The notes: generated from the letters alone by a model not told the origin. DNA of 64,000 nt from Proteobacteria bacterium bin106 (GCA_002238945.1 MPNI01000002.1:72855-136854); one strand, 5' to 3'; shown: positions 1-11,013, counted from the stretch's first letter. Numbers and translations: made by a program.

Positions 1-336
1 TATGACAGCAAAAGGTACATGCCAAGGCTCAGCAGTTCCTTAGAGGACTACAGCGGAGACAAGGTCTATGACGGAGGAGAAGTAAAAAGAAGCCGCGACA
101 GCGTAGATGCATATTCCACAGATGACTCCTCAGCTACCACAGACGATGCATCTCCATATCGCGGCAAGAAGGGTAAATACTTATACCCGCAAGAACATTA
201 CGATAGAATGGAAGCCGGTGCGCAGTTTCTTGTGAAAGAATTTTTAAAGAATGTTTTAGATGACAAAGATGTACATTCCATTAAACTCCATCGCAAAAAA
301 GGAGGCGCCTTTTTATGTGCTTACCGTTACGAATAA
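1..336 (+). CDS. hypothetical protein, C-terminal fragment (frame open to window start)
   Basis: The frame of ORF 19..336 has no stop back to position 1. It is followed by a hairpin terminator at 392-440. No family recognised. Confidence 0.35.
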   Translation, partial: YDSKRYMPRLSSSLEDYSGDKVYDGGEVKRSRDSVDAYSTDDSSATTDDASPYRGKKGKYLYPQEHYDRMEAGAQFLVKEFLKNVLDDKDVHSIKLHRKKGGAFLCAYRYE

Positions 337-391
337 ATAGGAGTCAACATCATAATCATCAGCACAAGAACGTCATGATGTGACACACCTA

Positions 392-440
392 AGCAGGTCC
401 TCTCTTAAGATCTTTTAAGAAAGGACCTGCTTTACGTTTT
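392..440 (+). terminator. putative intrinsic terminator
   Basis: 9-bp stem agcaggtcc (392-400) / ggacctgct (423-431) with an inner tcttaa/ttaaga stem, followed by the T-rich ttacgtttt. Confidence 0.45.
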
Positions 441-664
441 AAGCGTTCTATCTCGTTTTTTTACCACATCTTACCCGCTACAAACAATCTGTATTCTTTA
501 ACTAGACAAAAATACAACATAGTGTCTGCCAGTGCCGTTAAGTACTTTTTGTGGCCAAAACCATAATGCACATCTCAATCACGAAACTTTTAAAAATCTA
601 ACGTCTTAAAATGAGCCCGTTTACTCTGTTTGTTTCTTTAACCTCAAGTTCTACGCCATAAGTC

Positions 665-1450
665 ATGTCTTTTTTTCACATCATATGTCTAGTATGTGCT
701 TTGTTAGCTTTTCCTAATTTTTTACATGCTGCCCAAAGATATGGCACTGTTTCACCTTTACGTTGGGACACTAACAACACCTGCACTCAAAGTATCAATG
801 CACACATCCAAATCAGAGGCATTGACTTTGAAGCTGGTGCTCATACCTCTCGTTTTTTTGCTCAACAACCAGCCAAAGAACCCTTTCAAACAGAACTCAC
901 AGCATACGAGCCCTATGTTGGTGTATTCAGCTTCCATGGATCAAACACATCAAGTCATCCCTATAATTTTGAAAACTATCCGTTTTATATCCATCACATA
1001 GCTCCTTTTATTATCTATAACGGCATGATTTTTAGTGGAAACCAACAAGCAGATGGATCTTTTCAGCCTCTTAGTGCCACATTTGCTGCTTTAGCTGACT
1101 ACCCAGGAGTATTGGATGTGGTCTTGCACATATCCTTCCACCCCACCTTAACCCCTCAACCAGCAGTGGTGGGATATCGTTTAAATCTTCCGCTAAATAA
1201 TAGCAGAGAAGATGGACAGTGGTCTTTTGAGTTATGGGATAACTCACAGGTGTTCGTCAATTCCACATTTATCCTCCATGATTATGCCTGCTTGGTGTAT
1301 TACTATCCTACGTACTCACACGTCGTAAATGCATTTGGAAAAATACACCTAGGCACCACCAACTTGCCCAACTTGCCCAACTTGCCCAGCTTGCAAGGAA
1401 CTTTGGATAGCAACAATAGATGGCGCTTTTTGTTTGTAGTGGTAAGGTAG
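665..1450 (+). CDS. secreted hypothetical protein
   Basis: N-terminal signal peptide MSFFHIICLVCALLAFPNFLHA|AQ. In-frame 9-nt repeat encoding NLPNLPNLPSL near the C-terminus. No family recognised. Confidence 0.5.
   Translation: MSFFHIICLVCALLAFPNFLHAAQRYGTVSPLRWDTNNTCTQSINAHIQIRGIDFEAGAHTSRFFAQQPAKEPFQTELTAYEPYVGVFSFHGSNTSSHPYNFENYPFYIHHIAPFIIYNGMIFSGNQQADGSFQPLSATFAALADYPGVLDVVLHISFHPTLTPQPAVVGYRLNLPLNNSREDGQWSFELWDNSQVFVNSTFILHDYACLVYYYPTYSHVVNAFGKIHLGTTNLPNLPNLPSLQGTLDSNNRWRFLFVVVR
1361..1394. repeat. 9-nt tandem repeat (aacttgccc x3 plus a degenerate copy), in frame
   Basis: Read directly from the sequence; encodes (NLP)n in CDS 665..1450. Confidence 0.9.
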
Positions 1451-1485
1451 CTTATTTATTGATTTATGGGTTTATTGAGCTCTAG

Positions 1486-2238
1486 CTATTTCTTTGTAGG
1501 CACATCCATGTGTTTGATGATGTTATCAAGCTTTTTTTCAATGGATACAAGTCTTTTGTTGTAAACTTCTTCTTTATTTTGATCGTCGAGTTCAATGAAG
1601 TAGCTTGCCAGTAAGCCAGAAATACCACCATAAAAAGCCACACCATAAATCATCACCACAATGCCCAGTATGCGGCCATTAAAGGTGATGGGTACGACAT
1701 TGCCATATCCCACAGTCGTAAGCGTGACAACACTCCACCACACAGCATCCAGTGGTGTTTTAATGCTCGAGTCAGGCGCATTTTCAAAATAGAGAATCAA
1801 CGTCGAAGTCAGAAAGATAATTAAGCTGGTAATAAGAGCAATCAACACCGGAGCTGAGACATTATTGTTTTTGATCAAATAGGGAATTATACCCCTAAAA
1901 ACCTTTAAAGAACGCAACAAATAATATAATCGTGCTAAGTGAGAAAGACGTCCTAAGCGGAAAACATCAAACCAAGCCATACAAGATAGCAGATCCAACC
2001 ATCCACCTTGCTTAAAAAAATACACTTTGCGAGATGAGGCGCGTTTGAGGCGATAGAAAAAATCCATCAAAAAAACAACACATAACAAACGATCAAAACC
2101 CAAGGCTAAAGCTCTTGAAGCCTCAGCCTTACCTTCTAAAGTAAGAGGGACAAGATTGATCAAGCTCACCAGCGATAAAATACCCACAGCGAGTTCATAA
2201 ATGACCTGTTTTTTGCGAAAAAGCTCCATTCGTGGCAT
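1486..2238 (-). CDS. 6TM voltage-gated-type K+ channel
   Basis: K+ selectivity filter TLTTVGYG. S4-like helix FRLGRLSHLARLYYLLRSLKVFR with a basic residue at nearly every third position. S5-pore-S6 layout. Confidence 0.85.
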   Translation of the reverse strand: MPRMELFRKKQVIYELAVGILSLVSLINLVPLTLEGKAEASRALALGFDRLLCVVFLMDFFYRLKRASSRKVYFFKQGGWLDLLSCMAWFDVFRLGRLSHLARLYYLLRSLKVFRGIIPYLIKNNNVSAPVLIALITSLIIFLTSTLILYFENAPDSSIKTPLDAVWWSVVTLTTVGYGNVVPITFNGRILGIVVMIYGVAFYGGISGLLASYFIELDDQNKEEVYNKRLVSIEKKLDNIIKHMDVPTKK

Positions 2239-2266
2239 ACATGAACCTTACATCAACAATAAAAGC

Positions 2267-3115
2267 TTATTCATCCTCATCAGAAATGACGATTTCTGCG
2301 ATTTTCATGCGTGGAGAGGTGTTTTGTGATGCATCCACCTTTTCCACACTGGCACGGATCAACAACTTCACACCCGCAGAAGGACCAATGGTTTCTACAC
2401 GCAAAGACTCATCCTCTTGGAGCGGATAAAGAGCCTCAAGACTATCGAGTTCTTGGATATCATTGATTTCTTTGCGCACCAGTTCCATGATGGTTTTTTC
2501 TTTAGAAAAAGCCATATTCGATCCCAAACAATCCCCATTCATACGAAAATAAGCCGTAGGTGATGGCATATCAGCTATGAGAGTTAGGATGATTTTACGA
2601 ATCTCAGCGAGTCGTCCAGCATACTGAGATGAGGTTTTATCCATGGCATCAAGAGCTGAGTTAAAAAGAGAGGCAAATTGAGAAAGCTCATCAAAACCAC
2701 TCATCACCAAACGTTTATGCAGTAACCCATGACTATGACTATCTAAAACAAAACGCCTTAAAGAATTCAGACGTGTCACCACATGCTTTTTTAAAGTGCT
2801 CATCCCAATGGCAAAAAGCAACATAACCAGCACAGCTGATATCACCATCAGCAAATACATTTGATAGCGGTAATTTTCAAAATCTTTAAGAATGGTTTGC
2901 CCTCTGGTTTGCAGAGCAGCAAGCTGTAAAGCAAGCTCGTTGGTCATGTGATCTTGCAGATGTTGAGCGGGAACAGCCGCAAGTGTCAGTAAACCAAGGG
3001 ATTTTTCCAGATTTTGAAAGATTATGCTCTGATTGATGTAATTGATCATCATCATGGCAGCCAGAAGGATCATAGCAGCCATAAATAAAAATGTGATACG
3101 TGTGCGTAATTTCAT
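2267..3115 (-). CDS. membrane protein with two TM helices, a HAMP domain and a PAS-like C-terminal region; no recognisable output domain
   Basis: TM1 ITFLFMAAMILLAAMMMI, TM2 MYLLMVISAVLVMLLFAIGM. HAMP-like segment RLNSLRRFV...GFDELSQFASLFNSALDAM. The C-terminal ~120 aa has a PAS-like start (PSPTAYFRMNGDCLGSNMAF). Confidence 0.55.
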   Translation of the reverse strand: MKLRTRITFLFMAAMILLAAMMMINYINQSIIFQNLEKSLGLLTLAAVPAQHLQDHMTNELALQLAALQTRGQTILKDFENYRYQMYLLMVISAVLVMLLFAIGMSTLKKHVVTRLNSLRRFVLDSHSHGLLHKRLVMSGFDELSQFASLFNSALDAMDKTSSQYAGRLAEIRKIILTLIADMPSPTAYFRMNGDCLGSNMAFSKEKTIMELVRKEINDIQELDSLEALYPLQEDESLRVETIGPSAGVKLLIRASVEKVDASQNTSPRMKIAEIVISDEDE

Positions 3116-3123
3116 GGCTGCTC

Positions 3124-3780
3124 CTAGGAGATACTCGCTAGTTTTTGAATATCCTCTGAGCTTCCCACTAACACCAACTTATCCACACTTTGAATAATCT
3201 CTGTAGCCTTAGGCGATGCAATAACCATATCTCCTCGATAAAGAGCTACCACACTGACGTTATAACGATTACGTAATTTAAGATCTTGAAGAGATTTATT
3301 GACAAAACGCTGCGGGGTACTGATCTCAGAAAGTCTCAAATCATGACCAAGATTAAACTGCTCCAATAAATACGGCTGAGACAGACGTTCAGCTAAACGC
3401 CTCCCCAGCTCTTCTTCAGGATTGATCACCTCATGAGCTCCCACAGAGCGCAATACCTTTTCATGTAATGCATGAATACCACGAGAAATAATACGAGCAC
3501 AGCCAATCTGAGAGAGCAAAGCTGTGGTGAGAATTGATGCTTCAAGAGAGCTCGCTCCAATCCCCACAACCACACAAGAAAACTTTTGGATCTCCAACTC
3601 CAAAAGACTATCTTTATCTGTGGTGTCACTTTGCACCGCTGCTGATACTTCACTGGAAATCTCCTCGATAAGCTCTTTCTTGCTATCGATGACAAGCACA
3701 GGATAGCCTTTCTGAGAGAGAGTTCTAGCCACAGAGCTACCAAAACGTCCGAGGCCAATAACAGCAAATGCATGAGTCAT
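3124..3780 (-). CDS. trkA: K+ uptake regulatory subunit TrkA/KtrA (RCK_N + RCK_C)
   Basis: Rossmann motif AVIGLGRFGSSVARTL and a C-terminal TrkA_C-like segment. I prefer the ATG at 3780 (MTHAFAVIG) because AGGAG lies 8 nt upstream; the ORF track starts at 3807. Confidence 0.85.
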   Translation of the reverse strand: MTHAFAVIGLGRFGSSVARTLSQKGYPVLVIDSKKELIEEISSEVSAAVQSDTTDKDSLLELEIQKFSCVVVGIGASSLEASILTTALLSQIGCARIISRGIHALHEKVLRSVGAHEVINPEEELGRRLAERLSQPYLLEQFNLGHDLRLSEISTPQRFVNKSLQDLKLRNRYNVSVVALYRGDMVIASPKATEIIQSVDKLVLVGSSEDIQKLASIS

Positions 3781-3814
3781 GGAAAGATCTCCTGGACAGA
3801 TGAACAAAACACAT

Positions 3815-3844
3815 CACTCAACCGCACTCAACCGCACTCAACCG
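3815..3844. repeat. 10-nt tandem repeat (cactcaaccg x3) spanning the trkH stop codon
   Basis: Read directly. The trkH TGA (3838-3840) lies inside the third copy. Confidence 0.9.
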
Positions 3845-5958
3845 ATCATCACTTCAGCACTGGGAAAATTGATGCGTGAACGATCATCACTAGCTAAAGC
3901 AATGGCAAGGGTTAAGGGGCCAATACGACCAATAAACATCCCAATAGCTATAATCACTTGTCCCACAAGATCGAGTTTATCAGTAATACCTAATGTTAGG
4001 CCAACAGTTCCACTGGCACTAAATATCTCAAATAACAATAACATGGGTGGTAAATCTTGGGTGAGCAGTAACAAAAACCATAATACACCGATAGTTGAAA
4101 AGGAAAGAATGATCAGAGCCGAACTTTTTGCCACCGTTTGCATGGAAAAATTTCGAGAAAATAACATCACTCTATTATCATTGCGAATCAACGTAGGAAG
4201 GGTGGCTAAAAGAGTGGCAAATGTCGTAACTTTAACTCCTCCAGCCGTACCGGCAGGAGCTCCTCCCACAAACATAAACAGCAACATCACCACAAATGAA
4301 GGATACGTAAAAAGCTCTAAAGGCAAGGTATTAAAACCCGCTGTTCTTAAAGTGATGCTATGAAAAAAACTATTCATTATCTTATCGCGAAGTGACAAGC
4401 TTGCCAGAGCTGAATCCCATTCCAACATCAAAAACAACACCCCACCAGCAACCACAAACACAACCGTTGCCACCACAACCACTTTGGTTTGAACACTCAA
4501 AGGAGTGATATGCGTCCTTTTGAAAAGCCGAGAGATCAACTCAAACAACACCACAAAGCCCATGCCACCAAGCACAATCAAAACCCCATAAGCTGCAAGC
4601 GCTACAGGAGAGCCGTGGAGATGAGTCAGAGAATCATCAGTGAGAGAAAAGCCTGCGTTACAAAAAGCACTCACAGCCTGAAATATACCCAACTTTAAAG
4701 ACGTATAAAAAGAAGGATCTTTCACACTATGATAATGTTGATAACCGATGATCGCTGCACCTATCAACTCAATGATCACTGTGGATATCACAATAAAAAT
4801 AATCAATTGACTGGTAGACTTCATACCTTTTCTAGAAAAAAACTCTGAAAAAGCTTTTTCTGTACGCACACCGAGCTTTCCACCTAAGGCAATGGTTGCA
4901 AAAGTAGATAGCACCATAATCCCTAAACCACCCACCTGCATCAGCCCAAGGATGACAAACCGGCCAAACTCAGAAAACACCTCTGAAATATTCACCACCG
5001 TTAATCCTGTGACACAGGTAGCAGAGATAGCGGTAAACAAAGCCTGCATAAATGTGATAGAGCTTCCCGTAGCAGAAGCTGCTGGAAGATAAAGAAACAA
5101 TGATCCTAAACTAATCAAAACAGCAAAGCTAAAAAGGACCAATAAAGCAGGAGCTGATTGAAAATTTTCTAAAATATCTCTTACTGTTGAGTTTTCAGCC
5201 ACAAGAAAACTCAACACCGTAATAAAATACATAAACATGAAAATCTGAGAGAGTATCCCTCCCCATACTCCAAAAAGAGAGATAGCACTCAATGCGAGTA
5301 TCACTAAAATCACACCCAGAGTTCTAAAGGCTGGATGATAGCGAATAAGCATATAAAGAAAACGGGTGGTAAGAAGTAAAGCCACCGCTGCATACAACAC
5401 AATAGCGTTACTCACAGCTTTCAACTCTGTAACCTTAAAACCATACGTTAAAAGCAAGCTGATGGCTGAAATCAACACCACATGAGACAGAGCAGGAGCA
5501 TAGTTCTGCATCCAAACACGATAAGGATTGTAACCGCGAAGACGACGATCAGAAAAACCAATAAAAGCAGAATGTCCTTCTGGTTCTAAAGGACGAGCGT
5601 ACATAAATGTAACAGCACCGAGATAGGCCTGATAAAACACCAAGATACCAGCTAACCATGTATCCACTGGCATAGCTAAAGCAAACACACCCACACTGGA
5701 AAACATCACTAACCAAGCCAAGCTTGTGGCCCAAAACAGCTTAAAACTAAAGCCAATGATAGCTAAAACACTGATAGTGATCCAAAACACTGACAGCACA
5801 GCCCCTGTCAGGCTATATTTTCCTCCAACGCCTAATAACCCCTCAGGATCATCTACCAAAAAAGCACCAAGAAGACTGATCAAACACGATGTAGCAATAC
5901 GTGTCACAGATGTCAGTATGGCAGCTCTCGCAGGTTCTTGAGGTGGCAAAAGGCGCAT
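3838..5958 (-). CDS. trkH: TrkH/KtrB-family K+ transporter with a ~265-aa N-terminal polytopic extension
   Basis: The C-terminal ~440 aa have the TrkH layout with repeated pore-loop glycine motifs (TCVTGLTV, FCNAGFSL, RTAGFNT, SASGTVGLT). The first ~265 aa are additional hydrophobic helices. Confidence 0.85.
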   Translation of the reverse strand: MRLLPPQEPARAAILTSVTRIATSCLISLLGAFLVDDPEGLLGVGGKYSLTGAVLSVFWITISVLAIIGFSFKLFWATSLAWLVMFSSVGVFALAMPVDTWLAGILVFYQAYLGAVTFMYARPLEPEGHSAFIGFSDRRLRGYNPYRVWMQNYAPALSHVVLISAISLLLTYGFKVTELKAVSNAIVLYAAVALLLTTRFLYMLIRYHPAFRTLGVILVILALSAISLFGVWGGILSQIFMFMYFITVLSFLVAENSTVRDILENFQSAPALLVLFSFAVLISLGSLFLYLPAASATGSSITFMQALFTAISATCVTGLTVVNISEVFSEFGRFVILGLMQVGGLGIMVLSTFATIALGGKLGVRTEKAFSEFFSRKGMKSTSQLIIFIVISTVIIELIGAAIIGYQHYHSVKDPSFYTSLKLGIFQAVSAFCNAGFSLTDDSLTHLHGSPVALAAYGVLIVLGGMGFVVLFELISRLFKRTHITPLSVQTKVVVVATVVFVVAGGVLFLMLEWDSALASLSLRDKIMNSFFHSITLRTAGFNTLPLELFTYPSFVVMLLFMFVGGAPAGTAGGVKVTTFATLLATLPTLIRNDNRVMLFSRNFSMQTVAKSSALIILSFSTIGVLWFLLLLTQDLPPMLLLFEIFSASGTVGLTLGITDKLDLVGQVIIAIGMFIGRIGPLTLAIALASDDRSRINFPSAEVMIG

Positions 5959-6167
5959 AAAAGAGAGTGCTTTTCAAAAAATATAATCTATAAAGCCGCT
6001 TTTTTCATGTTATCCTCAAGAGTTTACACAATTTATTTTGATAAACGAAACAAAGCCCAGTGTCGTATTCGGCATGATTTTCCTGCAGAAAGCAACATAG
6101 ACCATCTCAGGCATGCTACTTTGATGCTGAAAAGTAGGGGACTCTCCACCATACGTGCGAGCTAGCT

Positions 6168-6452
6168 ATGCTGATATACACCTTGTGGTCACGATGCATT
6201 ATTGTTGCTCTTTTAGGAATCTTACTCAATGGTGTTATTCGCGGTGAACGCACCCTTTCCGATTACGTAGAGCTTAAAGAAAAAAGAGATCTGCTCTCAG
6301 AAGTAGTCGATAAGCTCGAAGCAGAAAGCCAAGCTATTAGCGTTGAGATTCATCGCATTCGTCACTCTCATCAATATGCTAAAAAGGTCCTGCGTAGCAA
6401 ATATCACATTATGGAAGATAACGAAGAGCTGATCTTCTTTGAAGATGAGTAA
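6168..6452 (+). CDS. ftsB: septum formation initiator family protein (FtsB/DivIC-like)
   Basis: 94 aa: one N-terminal TM helix followed by a coiled coil (LSDYVELKEKRDLLSEVVDKLEAESQAISVEI) and a tail ...KYHIMEDNEELIFF, typical of FtsB. Confidence 0.55.
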   Translation: MLIYTLWSRCIIVALLGILLNGVIRGERTLSDYVELKEKRDLLSEVVDKLEAESQAISVEIHRIRHSHQYAKKVLRSKYHIMEDNEELIFFEDE

Positions 6453-6743
6453 GCCACGCTCGTAATCTCATAACAATAAACCACCCAAACAGATATGATC
6501 GTATGTGATGGCTGGAAAAATGCCCTCCCGTTATCACAGACACCATAGCTATAAGCAGACTTTGCCCTTTGCTAGCATATCTCTTAGCAAAGACCATTCG
6601 ATAAGATAGGGCTATGAATTCATAAAGATATGATCATAAAACCGATCGGCTCAGCAGCTATACACAAAGCTATACAATATACAAAAAGCTATACACAACC
6701 AAAAAAACGCATCCTTATATCTAGAGAGTAGGACAGTAGCTCC

Positions 6744-8216
6744 ATGAAGAAGTTAACCACAGAGTTTCGAGTGGGTATCTTCACCATTCTCTCCATTGCT
6801 GCTTTAAGTTATATTCTCTTTCTTCTTAATTCCAAATATTTCAGCTCTAAAAAAACCATCTCTCACTACACCCTTACCAACAATGCAAAAGGGGTTGTGA
6901 ACATGACAAATGTAAGAGCTGGTGGTGTGACCGTAGGACAGGTTACAGGCATTAAGCTGAAAGGACAGATGACACAGATCTATTTTGCCATTGATAGCAG
7001 CATCCTTATTCCCGAAGGATCAAAGATGGAACTACGTACCCGTGGTTTACTCGGTGAAACCTTCCTTGAGGTGGTAAGAGCTCCTGATTCAGGAAGATAT
7101 ATTGCCGAAGGAGATCTGGTTCCCATGAACACCCAATTTGTGGATTTCTCGGATTTGATCCGTATCATTGGCAGTATTGCTGTGGATGTGAAACATGTCA
7201 CAGAATCCTTTTCCAACTTGGTCAAAAAAGATTCCCATGGAAAAAGTCGGATTGAAACCGTTTTTGATGGCGTAGAACAATCCACCACCGATCTCAGACG
7301 TATCATTCAAAGCAATGAAGCTCAGGTAAAAAAGATACTCAGCAATATAAAAACCACCAGTGACCATCTTGTGGCCTATACCCAACAAGATCCTCTCAAA
7401 AATCTCAAAGAAGCTTCAGCCAAAATCGATGATTTCATCACAGATGCCAAAGGAGCTGTCACGGGACTTCAAGATATTGTGAGCGGGATGCAGCAAGGCA
7501 AAGGCACAGTGGGAAAATTACTCACCGATGAAGATCTTGCTGAAGACCTACGAGAAACAGCTGCAAAGATCCGTCAGGTGGTTTCTCCTAAGGAAGGATT
7601 AAGCATACAACTACAGTACAATAATGAATTCCGTTGGGGCTCTCACTCCCAGCATTATTTGCAAACTATTGTGAGTTTGCAAAAAAACACTTTCTATACC
7701 TTAGGCTTAACTGCTTATCCAGCTACCACCACCACCTCTAGTCGTATTGTTGCTAAAGAAAATGGACAAGAAGTTATAACCACACAAGAAGCTACCACAC
7801 AAAAAGACACCATCGGATTTCATCTTCAATGGGGACATCGTTTCAACCACTGGGCTTTTCGTCTCGGTGTGTTTGAAAACTCTGGAGGCTTAGCCACCGA
7901 TTTGCATCTGTTAGACAATCGGTTACGCTTCTCTCTAGAGGCTTTTCGTTTTAGCCAAAGCTCTCCGAAACGCTGGTTAGCGCAGTTTAAGTTTTATGGG
8001 TTTTGGTACTTTCTTCCCCATGTTTATGCTTCTTTTGGACTCGCTGATATCAGTGGACGTGGCCAAACAGAAAACCCCACCGATACATCCTCCCATAACA
8101 ACAACAATAACATAGGATCATCCATAGAGAATATGAGCCCATTTGTTGGCGCTGGATTCCATTTCAATGATGCTGACATCAAACGTTTAACCAGCTCAGC
8201 AGCTTTGATGTTTTGA
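6744..8216 (+). CDS. MCE/MlaD-family protein with a long helical region and a beta-rich C-terminal domain
   Basis: N-terminus MKKLTTEFRVGIFTILSIAALSYILF and MCE core VRAGGVTVGQVTGIKL...LRTRGLLGETFLEV. The C-terminal ~190 aa have alternating aromatic/hydrophobic patterns and end in ...AALMF. Confidence 0.7.
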   Translation: MKKLTTEFRVGIFTILSIAALSYILFLLNSKYFSSKKTISHYTLTNNAKGVVNMTNVRAGGVTVGQVTGIKLKGQMTQIYFAIDSSILIPEGSKMELRTRGLLGETFLEVVRAPDSGRYIAEGDLVPMNTQFVDFSDLIRIIGSIAVDVKHVTESFSNLVKKDSHGKSRIETVFDGVEQSTTDLRRIIQSNEAQVKKILSNIKTTSDHLVAYTQQDPLKNLKEASAKIDDFITDAKGAVTGLQDIVSGMQQGKGTVGKLLTDEDLAEDLRETAAKIRQVVSPKEGLSIQLQYNNEFRWGSHSQHYLQTIVSLQKNTFYTLGLTAYPATTTTSSRIVAKENGQEVITTQEATTQKDTIGFHLQWGHRFNHWAFRLGVFENSGGLATDLHLLDNRLRFSLEAFRFSQSSPKRWLAQFKFYGFWYFLPHVYASFGLADISGRGQTENPTDTSSHNNNNNIGSSIENMSPFVGAGFHFNDADIKRLTSSAALMF

Positions 8217-8375
8217 TTTAAGGAAAACTCTATATTTGATGTTGTATTCTGTATCGTAAACATTATATTGCGGGTATCTTTGCTAGACATAAGACTCAAA
8301 AAACACAACTGACATCCTATCCCTTCTACAAAACACATAATAAAAACACAAAAAAAAAGGTTGAGGCATAGCACT

Positions 8376-9803
8376 ATGCATATTTCTACAGGTCTAGACA
8401 TTCCTATTAAAGGATCACCTAGACATGTGGTGGACCAGCTTAAACCTGTAAGCTCTTATGCTTTACTCGCCCGTGATTATCATGGTATGCGTCCTACCAT
8501 GCATGTGCGTGTGGGTGATGAGGTAAAGCTAGGGGATATACTTTTTGAAGACAAAAAACAACCAGGTGTGTCCTTTGTCTCTCCTGCTTCAGGCAAAGTA
8601 ACTGCTATCCATCGTGGCGAGCGTCGCACTTTTTTGTCATGTGTGATCAAAAGCTCTGCAAAGCACTTAGAAGATGATGATGGTTTAAGTAAAAAGGCTT
8701 TCTTTACTCCCATAGATCCAGGCACTTTAGCTTCTTTATCCTCAGCAGACATACGCAGGCGCTTGCTTGATTCTGGCTTATGGACAGCTATCCGCAGAAG
8801 ACCTTTTTCTAAAACCCCTGCTGTGGATGAACAGCCTCGAGCGGTCTTTGTTTCCACAGTGGATTCAAGGCCTTTAGCCTTTAATCCCCAAATAGTCATT
8901 GCTGAGCACTCAGAGGCTTTTGATGCAGGCCTTGGGGTGTTACATGGCTTAACCGGTAAAGATATTTACTTGAATACGGCTCCTAATCAAAGTGTTCCAA
9001 ACAAGCCGTTTATTCACCATGAAGAATGGCAAGGCAAGCATCCTTGTGGATTAGTGGGAACACATATGCATATGCTACTGCCTGTGAGTTTAACGCATGT
9101 GAATTGGCATGTGGGCTATCAAGATGTGATAGCCATGGGATATCTTTTTATAAAAGGATGTCATTGGTTAGATCGTTATGTGGCTTTATGTGGTCCGGTG
9201 GTGGATAATCCTCGCATTATCAAAACCCGTCTTGGTGCTTGCTTAAGTGAGTTAGTGGGGCAAGAACATATCAACCTCAAAGGACTTACGACAGCTCCTT
9301 ATGATCAGCTTAGTCCTACAGAGAATAAAAAAAACCGCATTCGAGTGATATCAGGCTCGGTATTAGGGGGACATACAGCTAGAGAAGCTCACGATTATTT
9401 ATCACGTTTTGACTATCAAGTCACTTTGCTAGCAGAAGGCCACGAGCGCGATTTCTTTTTAACCAAAGGCTGGTTATCTCCTGGCTTTCATAAGTTTTCA
9501 TTACTTGGAACCTATCTGGGTAAGTTTGTACCAGGCTATCTGTTTCCTATGACCACTTCTACTCAAGGATCGAAGCGAGCCATGGTCCCTATTGGGTTAT
9601 ATGAAAAAGTGATGCCTTTGGATATTTTAGCCACCTATTTGCTCCGAGCTTTGATTGCTAAAGATACCCAAAGAGCTCAAGAACTAGGGGCTTTAGAGCT
9701 TGATGAAGAGGATCTAGCCTTAGCTACATTTGTGTGTGCTGGCAAATATGAGTATGGCCCTATTTTAAGAGATAACCTTACAGACATAGAGAAAAACGGT
9801 TGA
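8376..9803 (+). CDS. nqrA: Na+-translocating NADH:quinone oxidoreductase subunit A
   Basis: N-terminus MHISTGLDIPIKGSP is typical of NqrA, and this is the first gene of the nqrA-F order. ATG at 8376 has GAGG 9 nt upstream; the ORF track's TTG is at 8361. Confidence 0.9.
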   Translation: MHISTGLDIPIKGSPRHVVDQLKPVSSYALLARDYHGMRPTMHVRVGDEVKLGDILFEDKKQPGVSFVSPASGKVTAIHRGERRTFLSCVIKSSAKHLEDDDGLSKKAFFTPIDPGTLASLSSADIRRRLLDSGLWTAIRRRPFSKTPAVDEQPRAVFVSTVDSRPLAFNPQIVIAEHSEAFDAGLGVLHGLTGKDIYLNTAPNQSVPNKPFIHHEEWQGKHPCGLVGTHMHMLLPVSLTHVNWHVGYQDVIAMGYLFIKGCHWLDRYVALCGPVVDNPRIIKTRLGACLSELVGQEHINLKGLTTAPYDQLSPTENKKNRIRVISGSVLGGHTAREAHDYLSRFDYQVTLLAEGHERDFFLTKGWLSPGFHKFSLLGTYLGKFVPGYLFPMTTSTQGSKRAMVPIGLYEKVMPLDILATYLLRALIAKDTQRAQELGALELDEEDLALATFVCAGKYEYGPILRDNLTDIEKNG

Positions 9804-9804
9804 T

Positions 9805-11013
9805 ATGATTCGCAAGCTTCGCTCCATATTAGATACCCTAGAGCCTCATTTTCTTAAAGGAGGTAAGCTAGCTAAGTTGTTTCCATTGTATGAAGCAGCT
9901 GACACCTTCTTGTTTACGCCCTCATCGGTGACACAAACCACAGCTCACGTGCGTGATGCCATTGATTTAAAGCGCATGATGTTTTCTGTGATTATCGCTC
10001 TCCAGCCGGTGATTTTGATGGCTCAGTACAACACCGGCTTGCAAGCTAACTTAGGCTTGCAAGCCATGGGAATGGATGCTTCTCCTTCACAGTGGCGAGC
10101 CCTGATTTTGGAGTTTTTAGGCTTAGGATACAACCCTCATAGTCTATGGGATAACTTTGTCCATGGCATGCTGTATTTTGTACCTATTTTTCTAGTGACT
10201 CAACTTGCAGGGGGCATCACTGAGGCTTTATTTGCTAGCTTTCGTAAGCATGAAATCAACGAAGGATTTCTTGTTACCGGCATGCTTTATCCTTTAACTC
10301 TGCCTCCTGATATACCTCTGTGGCAAGTGGCTTTAGGGATTATTTTTGGTGTAGCTGTGGGTAAGGAGATTTTTGGAGGTACGGGCAAGAACTTTCTTAA
10401 TCCTGCTTTAACAGGCAGAGCCTTTTTGTATTTTGCTTACCCAGCTGACAGCTCTGGCAACTCGGTGTGGGTTGCAGTGGATGGTTATTCCAAAGCTACT
10501 CCTTTGGCTGATGCTGCCGAAGGTGGCATGCCTATGCTTACAGCAAACTTTGATTGGTGGTCCTCTTTTTTAGGTTTTATCCCAGGATCCATGGGAGAAA
10601 CCTCTGCTTTAGGGTGTTTGCTGGGAGCTTCTTTGCTTGTGGTCATGGGCATTGCTTCATTGCGGATCATGGTAGCCATGGTCCTTGCCAGTGCTACCGT
10701 TATCACTTTATTCAATGTATTTGGTAGCTCTGGGTATTTTGACGTGCCTTTTTATTGGCATTTTGTCATGGGAGGGTTTGCTTTTGCCATGGCTTTTATG
10801 GCCACAGATCCTGTTTCAGCAGCCTATACCGGTACCGGTAAGATTTATTATGGGTTATTGATTGGTGTTATGGTTGCTATTGTCCGAGTGATCAACCCTG
10901 CTTATCCTGAAGGCACCATGCTGGCTATCTTATTTGCTAATTCTTTTGCTCCTCTTATCGATTACTTTGTGATCCGCTCTAACATCAAAAGGAGGTTAGC
11001 GCGCGATGGCTAA
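9805..11013 (+). CDS. nqrB: Na+-NQR subunit B
   Basis: Polytopic membrane protein with NqrB/RnfD-type motifs (GKEIFGGTGKNFLNPALTGRAFL, ATDPVSA). Position in the operon fits. Confidence 0.93.
   Translation: MIRKLRSILDTLEPHFLKGGKLAKLFPLYEAADTFLFTPSSVTQTTAHVRDAIDLKRMMFSVIIALQPVILMAQYNTGLQANLGLQAMGMDASPSQWRALILEFLGLGYNPHSLWDNFVHGMLYFVPIFLVTQLAGGITEALFASFRKHEINEGFLVTGMLYPLTLPPDIPLWQVALGIIFGVAVGKEIFGGTGKNFLNPALTGRAFLYFAYPADSSGNSVWVAVDGYSKATPLADAAEGGMPMLTANFDWWSSFLGFIPGSMGETSALGCLLGASLLVVMGIASLRIMVAMVLASATVITLFNVFGSSGYFDVPFYWHFVMGGFAFAMAFMATDPVSAAYTGTGKIYYGLLIGVMVAIVRVINPAYPEGTMLAILFANSFAPLIDYFVIRSNIKRRLARDG

Follow-up and report, generated by a model that had tools for sequence, protein, structure and literature searches.

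Gene content of the potassium locus

The DNA considered here, called the window in the following, is a stretch of 64,000 nt from Proteobacteria bacterium bin106 (GCA_002238945.1 MPNI01000002.1:72855-136854), and positions are those of the window unless another contig is named. At 1486-5958 its minus strand carries a potassium module of four genes, which encode a KtrB/TrkH-type translocating subunit, a KtrA-type RCK subunit, a 282-residue protein with two transmembrane (TM) helices and a HAMP segment, and a channel of the Kv type. The 282-residue protein is a putative sensor and is referred to as the sensor for brevity. All four open reading frames (ORFs) are intact at the coordinates given in a preliminary description of this DNA, the intergenic gaps of 57, 8 and 28 nt reported there were measured again with the same values, and the motifs TVGYG and GFDELSQFASLFNSALDAM that it quoted are both found in the sequence. 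It had also set the start of the RCK gene at the ATG at 3780 instead of at the ORF start at 3807. That choice is supported by the homologues, since 11 of 11 homologous RCK proteins are 217-219 residues long and all of them open with M-x-x-x-F/Y-AVIGLG, in agreement with the shorter form.

Ribosome-binding sites of the AGGAG type precede the RCK and sensor genes. No terminator-like hairpin was detected in the three gaps of the operon, and no riboswitch or other Rfam element was found in positions 1-8000. The common strand and the short gaps suggest that the four genes form one operon. The region upstream of ktrB (5959-6167, assigned to neither strand) separates divergent genes and is the probable promoter region of the operon; it contains a sigma70-like consensus match at 6008-5980 on the minus strand, although such matches are not enriched there over shuffled sequences.

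The KtrB and KtrA subunits

The product of the first gene (3838-5958, minus strand) has 706 residues and consists of a complete KtrB core behind an N-terminal extension. It matches Pfam TrkH (8.6e-53) over residues 239-689 and model positions 9-491 of 502, as well as TIGR00933 (2.3e-86), and its best match in the PDB is KtrB 7zp9_I (5.7e-68), in which residues 272-706 are aligned to positions 26-455 of 455. The full-length matches to Pfam TrkH and to KtrB structures place the protein in the KtrB/TrkH superfamily, which is characterised by four M1-P-M2 repeats. The same PDB sequence search returned no TrkH structure. Thus, of the earlier naming as an extended TrkH with a TrkA/KtrA partner, the superfamily and the extension stand, while the finer name is of the KtrB/KtrA type by the PDB matches (in rounded figures, 6e-68 for KtrB and 9e-52 for KtrA).

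As the KtrB core is aligned from residue 272 onwards, approximately 265 N-terminal residues are extra. Hydropathy and an alignment of seven sequences delimit the extension to residues 1-268 (5155-5958, minus strand) and predict about eight TM helices in a 4+4 arrangement, with a K/R-rich cytoplasmic loop (residues 122-152) in between. This arrangement is consistent with an N-in topology and with the cytoplasmic N-terminus of KtrB. The extension can be aligned between loci and has eight positions that are invariant among eight sequences (R20, F92, D99, F118, W149, H159, F174 and F266); it has no match in Pfam or the PDB. In canonical KtrB the N-terminus is short, disordered and regulatory, and cryo-EM together with functional work locates it at the KtrA-KtrB interface, where it is decisive for ATP-dependent opening (PMC12059179). 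The 8-TM extension is joined exactly at this point.

A perfect tandem repeat of a 10-nt unit (3.0 copies; CACTCAACCG on the plus strand, GGTTGAGTGC on the coding strand) is located at 3815-3844, where it covers the stop codon of ktrB and runs into the spacer before ktrA. The gap between the two genes as called is 57 nt in all four sample contigs that span the junction, which argues against changes in the copy number of the repeat.

The second gene (3124-3780, minus strand) encodes a 218-residue RCK gating-ring subunit of the KtrA type with the nucleotide-binding motif GLGRFG. Both domains expected of a KtrA of about 220 residues, TrkA_N with GxGxxG (4.6e-25) and TrkA_C (1.3e-13), are recognised by Pfam, and in the PDB the protein is matched over its full length by KtrA 5but (9.1e-52) and 4j90 (1e-36), and it also matches KtrC 6i8v (1.3e-41).

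Architecture of the sensor

The sensor gene occupies 2267-3115 on the minus strand. Structure prediction with AlphaFold2 from an alignment of two sequences gave a mean predicted local distance difference test score (pLDDT) of 51, and the model used here, built from 95 aligned sequences, reached 89.3. Combined with the family alignments, it divides the protein into six parts, all on the minus strand: TM1 (residues 7-29, 3029-3097), which follows a family-wide M-x-L-R-T-R motif; a short, poorly conserved extracytoplasmic helical hairpin (residues 30-83, 2867-3028); TM2 (residues 84-106, 2798-2866); the HAMP segment (residues 107-160, 2636-2797); a C-terminal alpha/beta domain (residues 161-260, 2336-2635); and an acidic tail (residues 261-282, 2270-2335), which is predicted to be disordered (pLDDT 54-61), is not conserved and is missing in most relatives. 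In the model TM1 runs into a short extracytoplasmic helix, and after a loop a second helix (residues 59-129) extends through TM2 into AS1 of the HAMP segment; the HAMP connector comprises residues 130-142, and AS2 and a stalk helix together residues 143-181.

The two TM helices and the HAMP segment of the preliminary description are supported by the model, in which a helix-coil-helix follows TM2. The segment has the features of a HAMP domain: it directly follows TM2 of a 2TM protein and has two helices, a 13-residue connector, a glycine and a DE motif. Residues R135, G140, D142, E143 and N152 are invariant among 14 sequences. The window protein itself has no match in Pfam at E<=10, HAMP included, and the assignment rests on family homology, the invariant residues, the predicted helix-coil-helix and NCBIfam alignments to HAMP regions (1.4e-5 to 7e-4), among them those of residues 62-175 to the TM2-HAMP parts of CtpM, YfiN and ArsS (1e-5 to 2e-4). 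Among 95 aligned family members, Pfam recognises HAMP in 74 (best 2.3e-17), 4HB_MCP_1 in 25 and KinB_sensor in 8, and it has no family for the C-terminal ~110 residues. A profile of the family matches Tsr (8e-9), the KinB sensor 4lle (9e-7), NarQ (2e-3) and, weakly, the TM2-HAMP part of HtrII (0.16) in the PDB.

A word-index search for homologues of the 282-residue protein retrieved the protein itself and one relative of 44% identity; the protein is recorded from a metagenome-assembled genome (MAG) labelled 'Proteobacteria bacterium' (GCA_026712765.1). An exhaustive hidden Markov model search of 1.84 billion cluster representatives (clusters at 50% identity) resulted in 101 matches. Approximately 14 of these are short forms of 240-285 residues, like the window protein, and many others are larger, at about 350 residues, and have a more extended extracytoplasmic domain. 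Starting from the long form P0031, a second search added 111 clusters, so the family comprises at least 200 sequence clusters. Its named sources are the cultured Persicimonas caeni, Myxococcota, Acidobacteria/Thermoanaerobaculia (Acidobacteriota) and Planctomycetes (Planctomycetota). The relatives found with P0031 are labelled at best 'HAMP domain-containing protein', and some are mis-called histidine kinases. Five sequences (P0096-P0100) were rejected as members, being true kinases or cyclases that had been matched through HAMP alone. To judge from the alignments, the window hairpin of ~55 residues corresponds, in shortened form, to the 4HB/KinB-like sensor domain that the ~350-residue members have.

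That the protein has no kinase, cyclase, MCP or DNA-binding output, as had been proposed from the sequence, was confirmed by Pfam (E<=10), by sequence search of the PDB and by Foldseek, and the same three approaches found no recognised output domain in the last 120 residues. The extra C-terminus of the longer members P0057, P0048 and P0073 is a low-complexity tail rich in Pro and Ala and contains no output domain. Some long-form sensors carry 230-290 additional C-terminal residues (in L026 at 5170-7065; P0057, in L023 at 6001-7761), which in P0057 are Pro/Ala-rich and of low complexity, with no domain.

The C-terminal domain had been described as a PAS-like tail. An alpha/beta domain with weak PAS matches is indeed present, but its topology and its best weak matches lean to Roadblock/LC7 rather than to canonical PAS. 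The predicted elements are a helix ending at residue 181, strands 187-191 and 196-199, a kinked helix 203-221 and strands 227-233, 236-243 and 252-259. This alpha-beta-beta-alpha-beta-beta-beta order with a five-stranded sheet is that of Roadblock/LC7. PAS domains have several, typically four, helices between strands B and G, and here one kinked helix of ~19 residues lies between strands 2 and 3. The domain has a conserved NG-x-L-x-SN motif and a conserved R173, and there are invariant residues in its C-terminal beta-hairpin. Foldseek matches to the PDB are weak (best 1.7e-3), with Roadblock/LC7 proteins at rank 1 and making up most of the top 11, and PAS matches at E-values of 2e-3 to 5e-2 and TM-scores of 0.35-0.5. 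With a profile of the C-terminal part only, the top PDB match was Robl_LC7 7f8m_A (E=0.023), and the profile of the long forms did not recover it. Among 43 members the Pfam matches to this domain were below threshold: Robl_LC7 in 2 (>=0.063) and PAS_4 in 1 (0.044). Pairwise profile alignment with hhalign gave P=0.056 for human DYNLRB1 (dynein LC7) and P=0.43 for photoactive yellow protein, both against approximate sequences. We therefore refer to a Roadblock/PAS-like alpha/beta domain with a predicted topology that leans, borderline as the scores are, to Roadblock.

Conservation of the ktrB-ktrA-sensor unit

All 15 distinct loci that were examined around a family member have the sensor gene directly behind ktrA, in the same orientation. 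These loci, with the ktrA-sensor spacing in nt, are the window (8), L001 (24), L013 (32), L014/15 (40), L016 (-1), L017/18 (79), L019 (2), L020 (3), L021 (142), L022 (-4), L023 (13), L024 (10), L025 (~5), L026 (~15) and L028 (~0). Start and stop codons overlap in L016 and L022, and L024 is the complete genome of the cultured Persicimonas caeni (CP042468.1). In all 15 loci ktrA encodes 217-219 residues, and ktrB is located upstream wherever the contig extends far enough. The sensors match with E-values of 1e-150 to 2e-5 at 26-44% identity, and identity to the window drops in a similar order for the three proteins (KtrA 87-40%, KtrB 54-37%, sensor 44-26%). The genes flanking the trio differ in every lineage. 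Synteny with potassium uptake genes, on which the preliminary description had staked its reading beforehand, was thus upheld, and with 15 of 15 sensors placed right after ktrB-ktrA the link to potassium uptake is not accidental.

The fourth gene behaves differently. It encodes a KvAP-like channel of 250 residues (1486-2238, minus strand) that matches Ion_trans_2 (5.8e-15) and Ion_trans (1.7e-11, residues 26-218) in Pfam, and the KcsA pore (1e-15) and full-length KvAP (8e-15, residues 13-214) in the PDB. The TVGYG selectivity filter and the S4 helix with spaced Arg/Lys that had been noticed before are visible in the sequence, the latter as RLGRLSHLARLYYLLRSLKVFR, and the protein can be assigned to the Kv/KvAP type, with a predicted S1-S4 sensor-like domain and an S5-P-S6 pore. 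This channel gene, or its orthologue, follows the sensor in 2 of the 15 loci, the window and its closest relative L014/L015, and is missing downstream of the sensor in the remaining 13, including L001, whose sensor is the most similar to that of the window. In L014 the channel gene (8854-9849) starts 13 nt past the sensor stop codon and encodes 331 residues with Ion_trans_2 (8e-15) and TVGYG. The preliminary description had asked whether the HAMP gene is always sandwiched between the RCK gene and the channel gene; the first of these neighbours is constant and the second is not. The four-gene arrangement is accordingly real in the window, but the channel is a lineage-specific add-on, and the conserved unit consists of three genes: extended ktrB, ktrA and the sensor.

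The L014 channel has an extra N-terminal part of ~75 residues that is very rich in Lys/Arg and a C-terminal tail rich in Cys, Glu and Gly, neither of which is present in the window channel. In Persicimonas caeni, and in this organism only, a 76-residue ORF with a weak 23S_rRNA_IVP match is located between ktrB and ktrA (L024 6040-6270). Directly upstream of an unrelated ktrA-ktrB pair, L043, there is a gene (2-1357) for a HAMP protein with an adenylate/guanylate cyclase domain (Guanylate_cyc 4e-25, HAMP 2.5e-10), which is a different, classical sensor beside ktrAB.

In the reverse direction, a scan of metagenomes with a KtrA alignment yielded 80 ktrA loci of 35-51% identity, which were searched by hmmsearch with models of the sensor, KtrA and extended KtrB. 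The sensor was found in only three of them, L025, L026 and L028, all of which rank among the four best KtrA matches. KtrB was matched from model position 11-14, that is, with the extension present, only in L026 and L028. A further 33 loci encode a complete KtrB that is matched only from model position 249-287 onwards, and none of these loci has the sensor; the in-frame residues upstream of the match number at most 66 in 32 of these and 145 in L101. Altogether the extension is present in 10 of 10 complete KtrBs linked to a sensor and in 0 of 33 that are not (Fisher p=5e-10, without correction for phylogeny). Five distant KtrA loci obtained by a scan of genome contigs with KtrA are likewise all sensor-less; in one of these, L008, ktrA is followed by a 477-residue ORF that is a putative ktrB.

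Within KtrA, only five positions set the two kinds of system apart: A87, R100, E117, N120 and Q141 are conserved to >=85% in 14 sensor-linked KtrAs and shared by <=20% of 77 sensor-less ones. E117 and N120 belong to the HEV(I/V)NPE segment that closes the RCK N-lobe.

A proposed sensor subunit of a potassium channel

The balance of these observations tips modestly towards the 282-residue protein being a dedicated, non-enzymatic sensor or transducer subunit of a specialised KtrAB system, which would influence gating by direct contact. Since the protein has no output of its own, is conserved, is linked to ktrA and is paired with an extended KtrB, a regulatory subunit acting by contact is the most economical explanation. 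Strict synteny fits such a mode of action, and the perfect co-occurrence makes the KtrB extension the likeliest docking partner. We infer a physical interaction from these observations, and what follows on the partner surface, on which way regulation runs and on what is sensed is conditional in the same way.

The sensor is probably a chemoreceptor-like homodimer in which, starting from the N-terminus, two TM helices with a short extracytoplasmic bundle would be followed by a HAMP four-helix bundle, a coiled-coil stalk and a dimeric Roadblock/PAS-like domain. Docking is proposed between its TM helices and the 8-TM extension of KtrB, on the model of the 2TM-HAMP transducer HtrII and its partner sensory rhodopsin II. 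From there a conformational change would travel through the HAMP segment and the C-terminal domain to the nucleotide-binding ring of KtrA, to the N-terminal junction of KtrB, or to both, and so bias opening of the channel with no phosphotransfer. The extracytoplasmic ionic or osmotic state and the state of the membrane are candidate signals. As only a helical hairpin is kept, an extracytoplasmic ligand is less certain for the window protein than for the long forms, and the short form may instead respond to its partner or to the condition of the membrane. In the lineage of the window, the appended KvAP-like gene would lead to co-expression of an uptake pathway and a voltage-gated potassium pathway.

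In its most specific form, the proposal is of a 2TM-HAMP transducer hard-wired to an ion channel, with TM docking on an 8-TM receptor module of KtrB and a Roadblock-like domain on the RCK ring, in a one-step pathway free of phosphorylation and second messengers that would operate in Myxococcota, Acidobacteriota, Planctomycetota and uncultured lineages. This fuller picture is offered tentatively, as a possibility somewhat on the doubtful side.

Several points weigh against direct contact gating. Co-transcription is deduced from gene spacing alone. The sensor-linked KtrAs and KtrBs belong to one clade, and the association of sensor and extension (10/0/0/33) could go back to one event in their common ancestor, with joint inheritance thereafter. 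The five sensor-specific positions of KtrA form no clear docking patch in the comparison of 14 with 77 sequences. The extracytoplasmic part of the window protein is short and poorly conserved and may not bind a ligand. Finally, the match to Roadblock is of borderline significance and disappeared when another profile was used, and nothing should rest on it.

Other explanations have to be considered as well. The protein could be the input half of a split pathway, its C-terminal domain acting on an unlinked partner such as a small GTPase, a kinase or a second-messenger enzyme, with a shared stress accounting for its position in the ktr operon. Roadblock/LC7 domains classically regulate GTPases, the best weak matches of the C-terminal domain are Roadblock proteins, and the HAMP-cyclase of L043 indicates that ordinary signalling proteins can adjoin ktrAB. 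Yet the 15 loci share no gene beside the trio for a GTPase, a kinase or any other candidate partner, and the fact that the sensor coincides without exception with a structural change in KtrB points, together with the start/stop overlaps, to a stoichiometric partner, which makes a split pathway unlikely. About equally unlikely is a purely structural function, in which the protein would stabilise or position the 16-TM KtrB or tether the KtrA ring, transmitting no signal and using HAMP as a rigid dimeric stalk. The reduced extracytoplasmic part in the clade of the window and the strict genetic linkage to extended KtrB would suit such an assembly or localisation subunit. A passive strut hardly explains, however, why a complete 4HB_MCP/KinB-like domain and a canonical HAMP, signalling motifs included, have been retained in most members, and the invariant connector residues indicate that HAMP mechanics are preserved.

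The preliminary description had inferred contact of the sensor with the uptake system or the channel. With the Kv-type channel as the target, the four genes would form an integrated influx/efflux device. The channel gene is indeed close to the sensor gene, 28 nt away here and 13 nt in L014, and it has persisted while the sensors diverged to 40% identity. Its absence after the sensor in 13 of the 15 loci, L001 among them, means that the sensor family evolved and persists independently of the channel, and the channel is improbable as the target. It is harder still to regard the protein as the decaying, functionless remnant of a histidine kinase or chemoreceptor that has lost its output. Such a view could appeal to the lack of a Pfam match for the window protein and to the mis-annotation of some relatives as histidine kinases, but 12 contigs from different samples carry the same intact ORF without a difference, and in more than 200 clusters from several phyla the protein likewise lacks an output and has a conserved C-terminal domain with a confidently predicted fold. 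Family breadth and conservation rule out a pseudogene or remnant, whose probability we consider negligible. A sensor subunit that gates KtrAB by contact is thus retained as the preferred interpretation.

Neighbouring genes

Convergent with the channel gene, a plus-strand ORF of 261 residues (665-1450) has a signal-peptide-like N-terminus and no match in Pfam or NCBIfam, and it is called as a gene in every related contig. In L001 a convergent gene in the same position has no Pfam match either. On the other side, the plus strand at 6168-9803 and beyond, divergent from the potassium operon, encodes a DivIC-like septum protein of 94 residues, an unusually long MlaD/MCE-domain protein of 490 residues and the start of an Na+-NQR operon (nqrA; NF003759 5.5e-174). 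A gene for monomeric isocitrate dehydrogenase (IDH) is also present near the potassium operon in the same MAG.

Comparison with known systems

KtrAB and TrkAH are the main bacterial potassium uptake channels. To our knowledge, cytoplasmic ligands that act on the RCK ring (ATP/ADP, NADH, Na+, cyclic di-AMP (c-di-AMP)) are credited with regulating them acutely, and we know of no regulators of canonical KtrAB besides nucleotides, Na+ and c-di-AMP. The system described here resembles the KtrAB of Bacillus subtilis and Vibrio alginolyticus in the adjacent gene pair, in the 218-residue RCK protein with TrkA_N and TrkA_C and in the alignment over the whole of KtrB. It differs in the ~265-residue, 8-TM N-terminal domain of KtrB and in the constant presence of a third, sensor-like gene. 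The novelty, as read from the genomes, is thus a KtrAB with a dedicated sensor-like gene and a new membrane domain on KtrB, for which a regulatory function is proposed. The preliminary description knew of no Trk/Kv operon with an embedded HAMP sensor, and none was found in the full-text literature: among 8 million full texts, combinations of TrkH, TrkA, KtrA or KtrB with HAMP, Roadblock or an N-terminal extension returned nothing describing this arrangement.

If the proposal is true, external or membrane signals would reach a potassium channel directly through a sensor subunit, and the family would represent HAMP proteins with an output other than an enzyme or a chemotaxis array; direct gating of a channel would be a new output mode for HAMP signalling. 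The pairing of the sensor with a new 8-TM domain on the opening-decisive N-terminus of KtrB provides a concrete and testable structural hypothesis, and the presence of the operon in cultured Persicimonas caeni, with its complete genome, opens the idea to experiment. A probable role could also be assigned to the proteins of more than 200 clusters that have so far been labelled 'HAMP domain-containing protein' or mis-called histidine kinases.

Channels of the TrkH/KtrB type that need or use a third protein are known: TrkAH with SapD (TrkE) in E. coli and KtrABE in Synechocystis. SapD is an ABC ATPase and KtrE is unrelated to the sensor described here; unlike the latter, neither is a 2TM-HAMP protein or tied to an N-terminal TM extension of the channel subunit. 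In architecture the sensor resembles the 2TM-HAMP proteins HtrII, Tsr, NarQ and KinB, and its proposed docking on a multi-TM partner mirrors the HtrII-SRII complex. In contrast to these transducers, it has no MCP signalling domain, kinase core or methylation helices, its signal would run to a channel and not from a receptor to CheA, and the presumed partner domain is fused to an ion channel. Roadblock/LC7 proteins are dimeric platforms that bind nucleotide-binding proteins. The predicted topology and five-stranded sheet of the C-terminal domain, its top Foldseek matches and its top profile match invite comparison with Roadblock/LC7 (MglB, dynein LC7, LAMTOR) and PAS domains, but all scores are borderline (E>=1e-3) and no Pfam model of Robl_LC7 or PAS passed its threshold. 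We know of no other case of a Roadblock/PAS-like domain that follows HAMP and is linked to a potassium transporter. A membrane sensor genetically linked to potassium uptake is also known from KdpD/KdpE with KdpFABC. KdpD, however, is a histidine kinase that acts on transcription, and as the sensor described here has neither a kinase nor any other output, whatever control it exerts must be post-translational and by contact.

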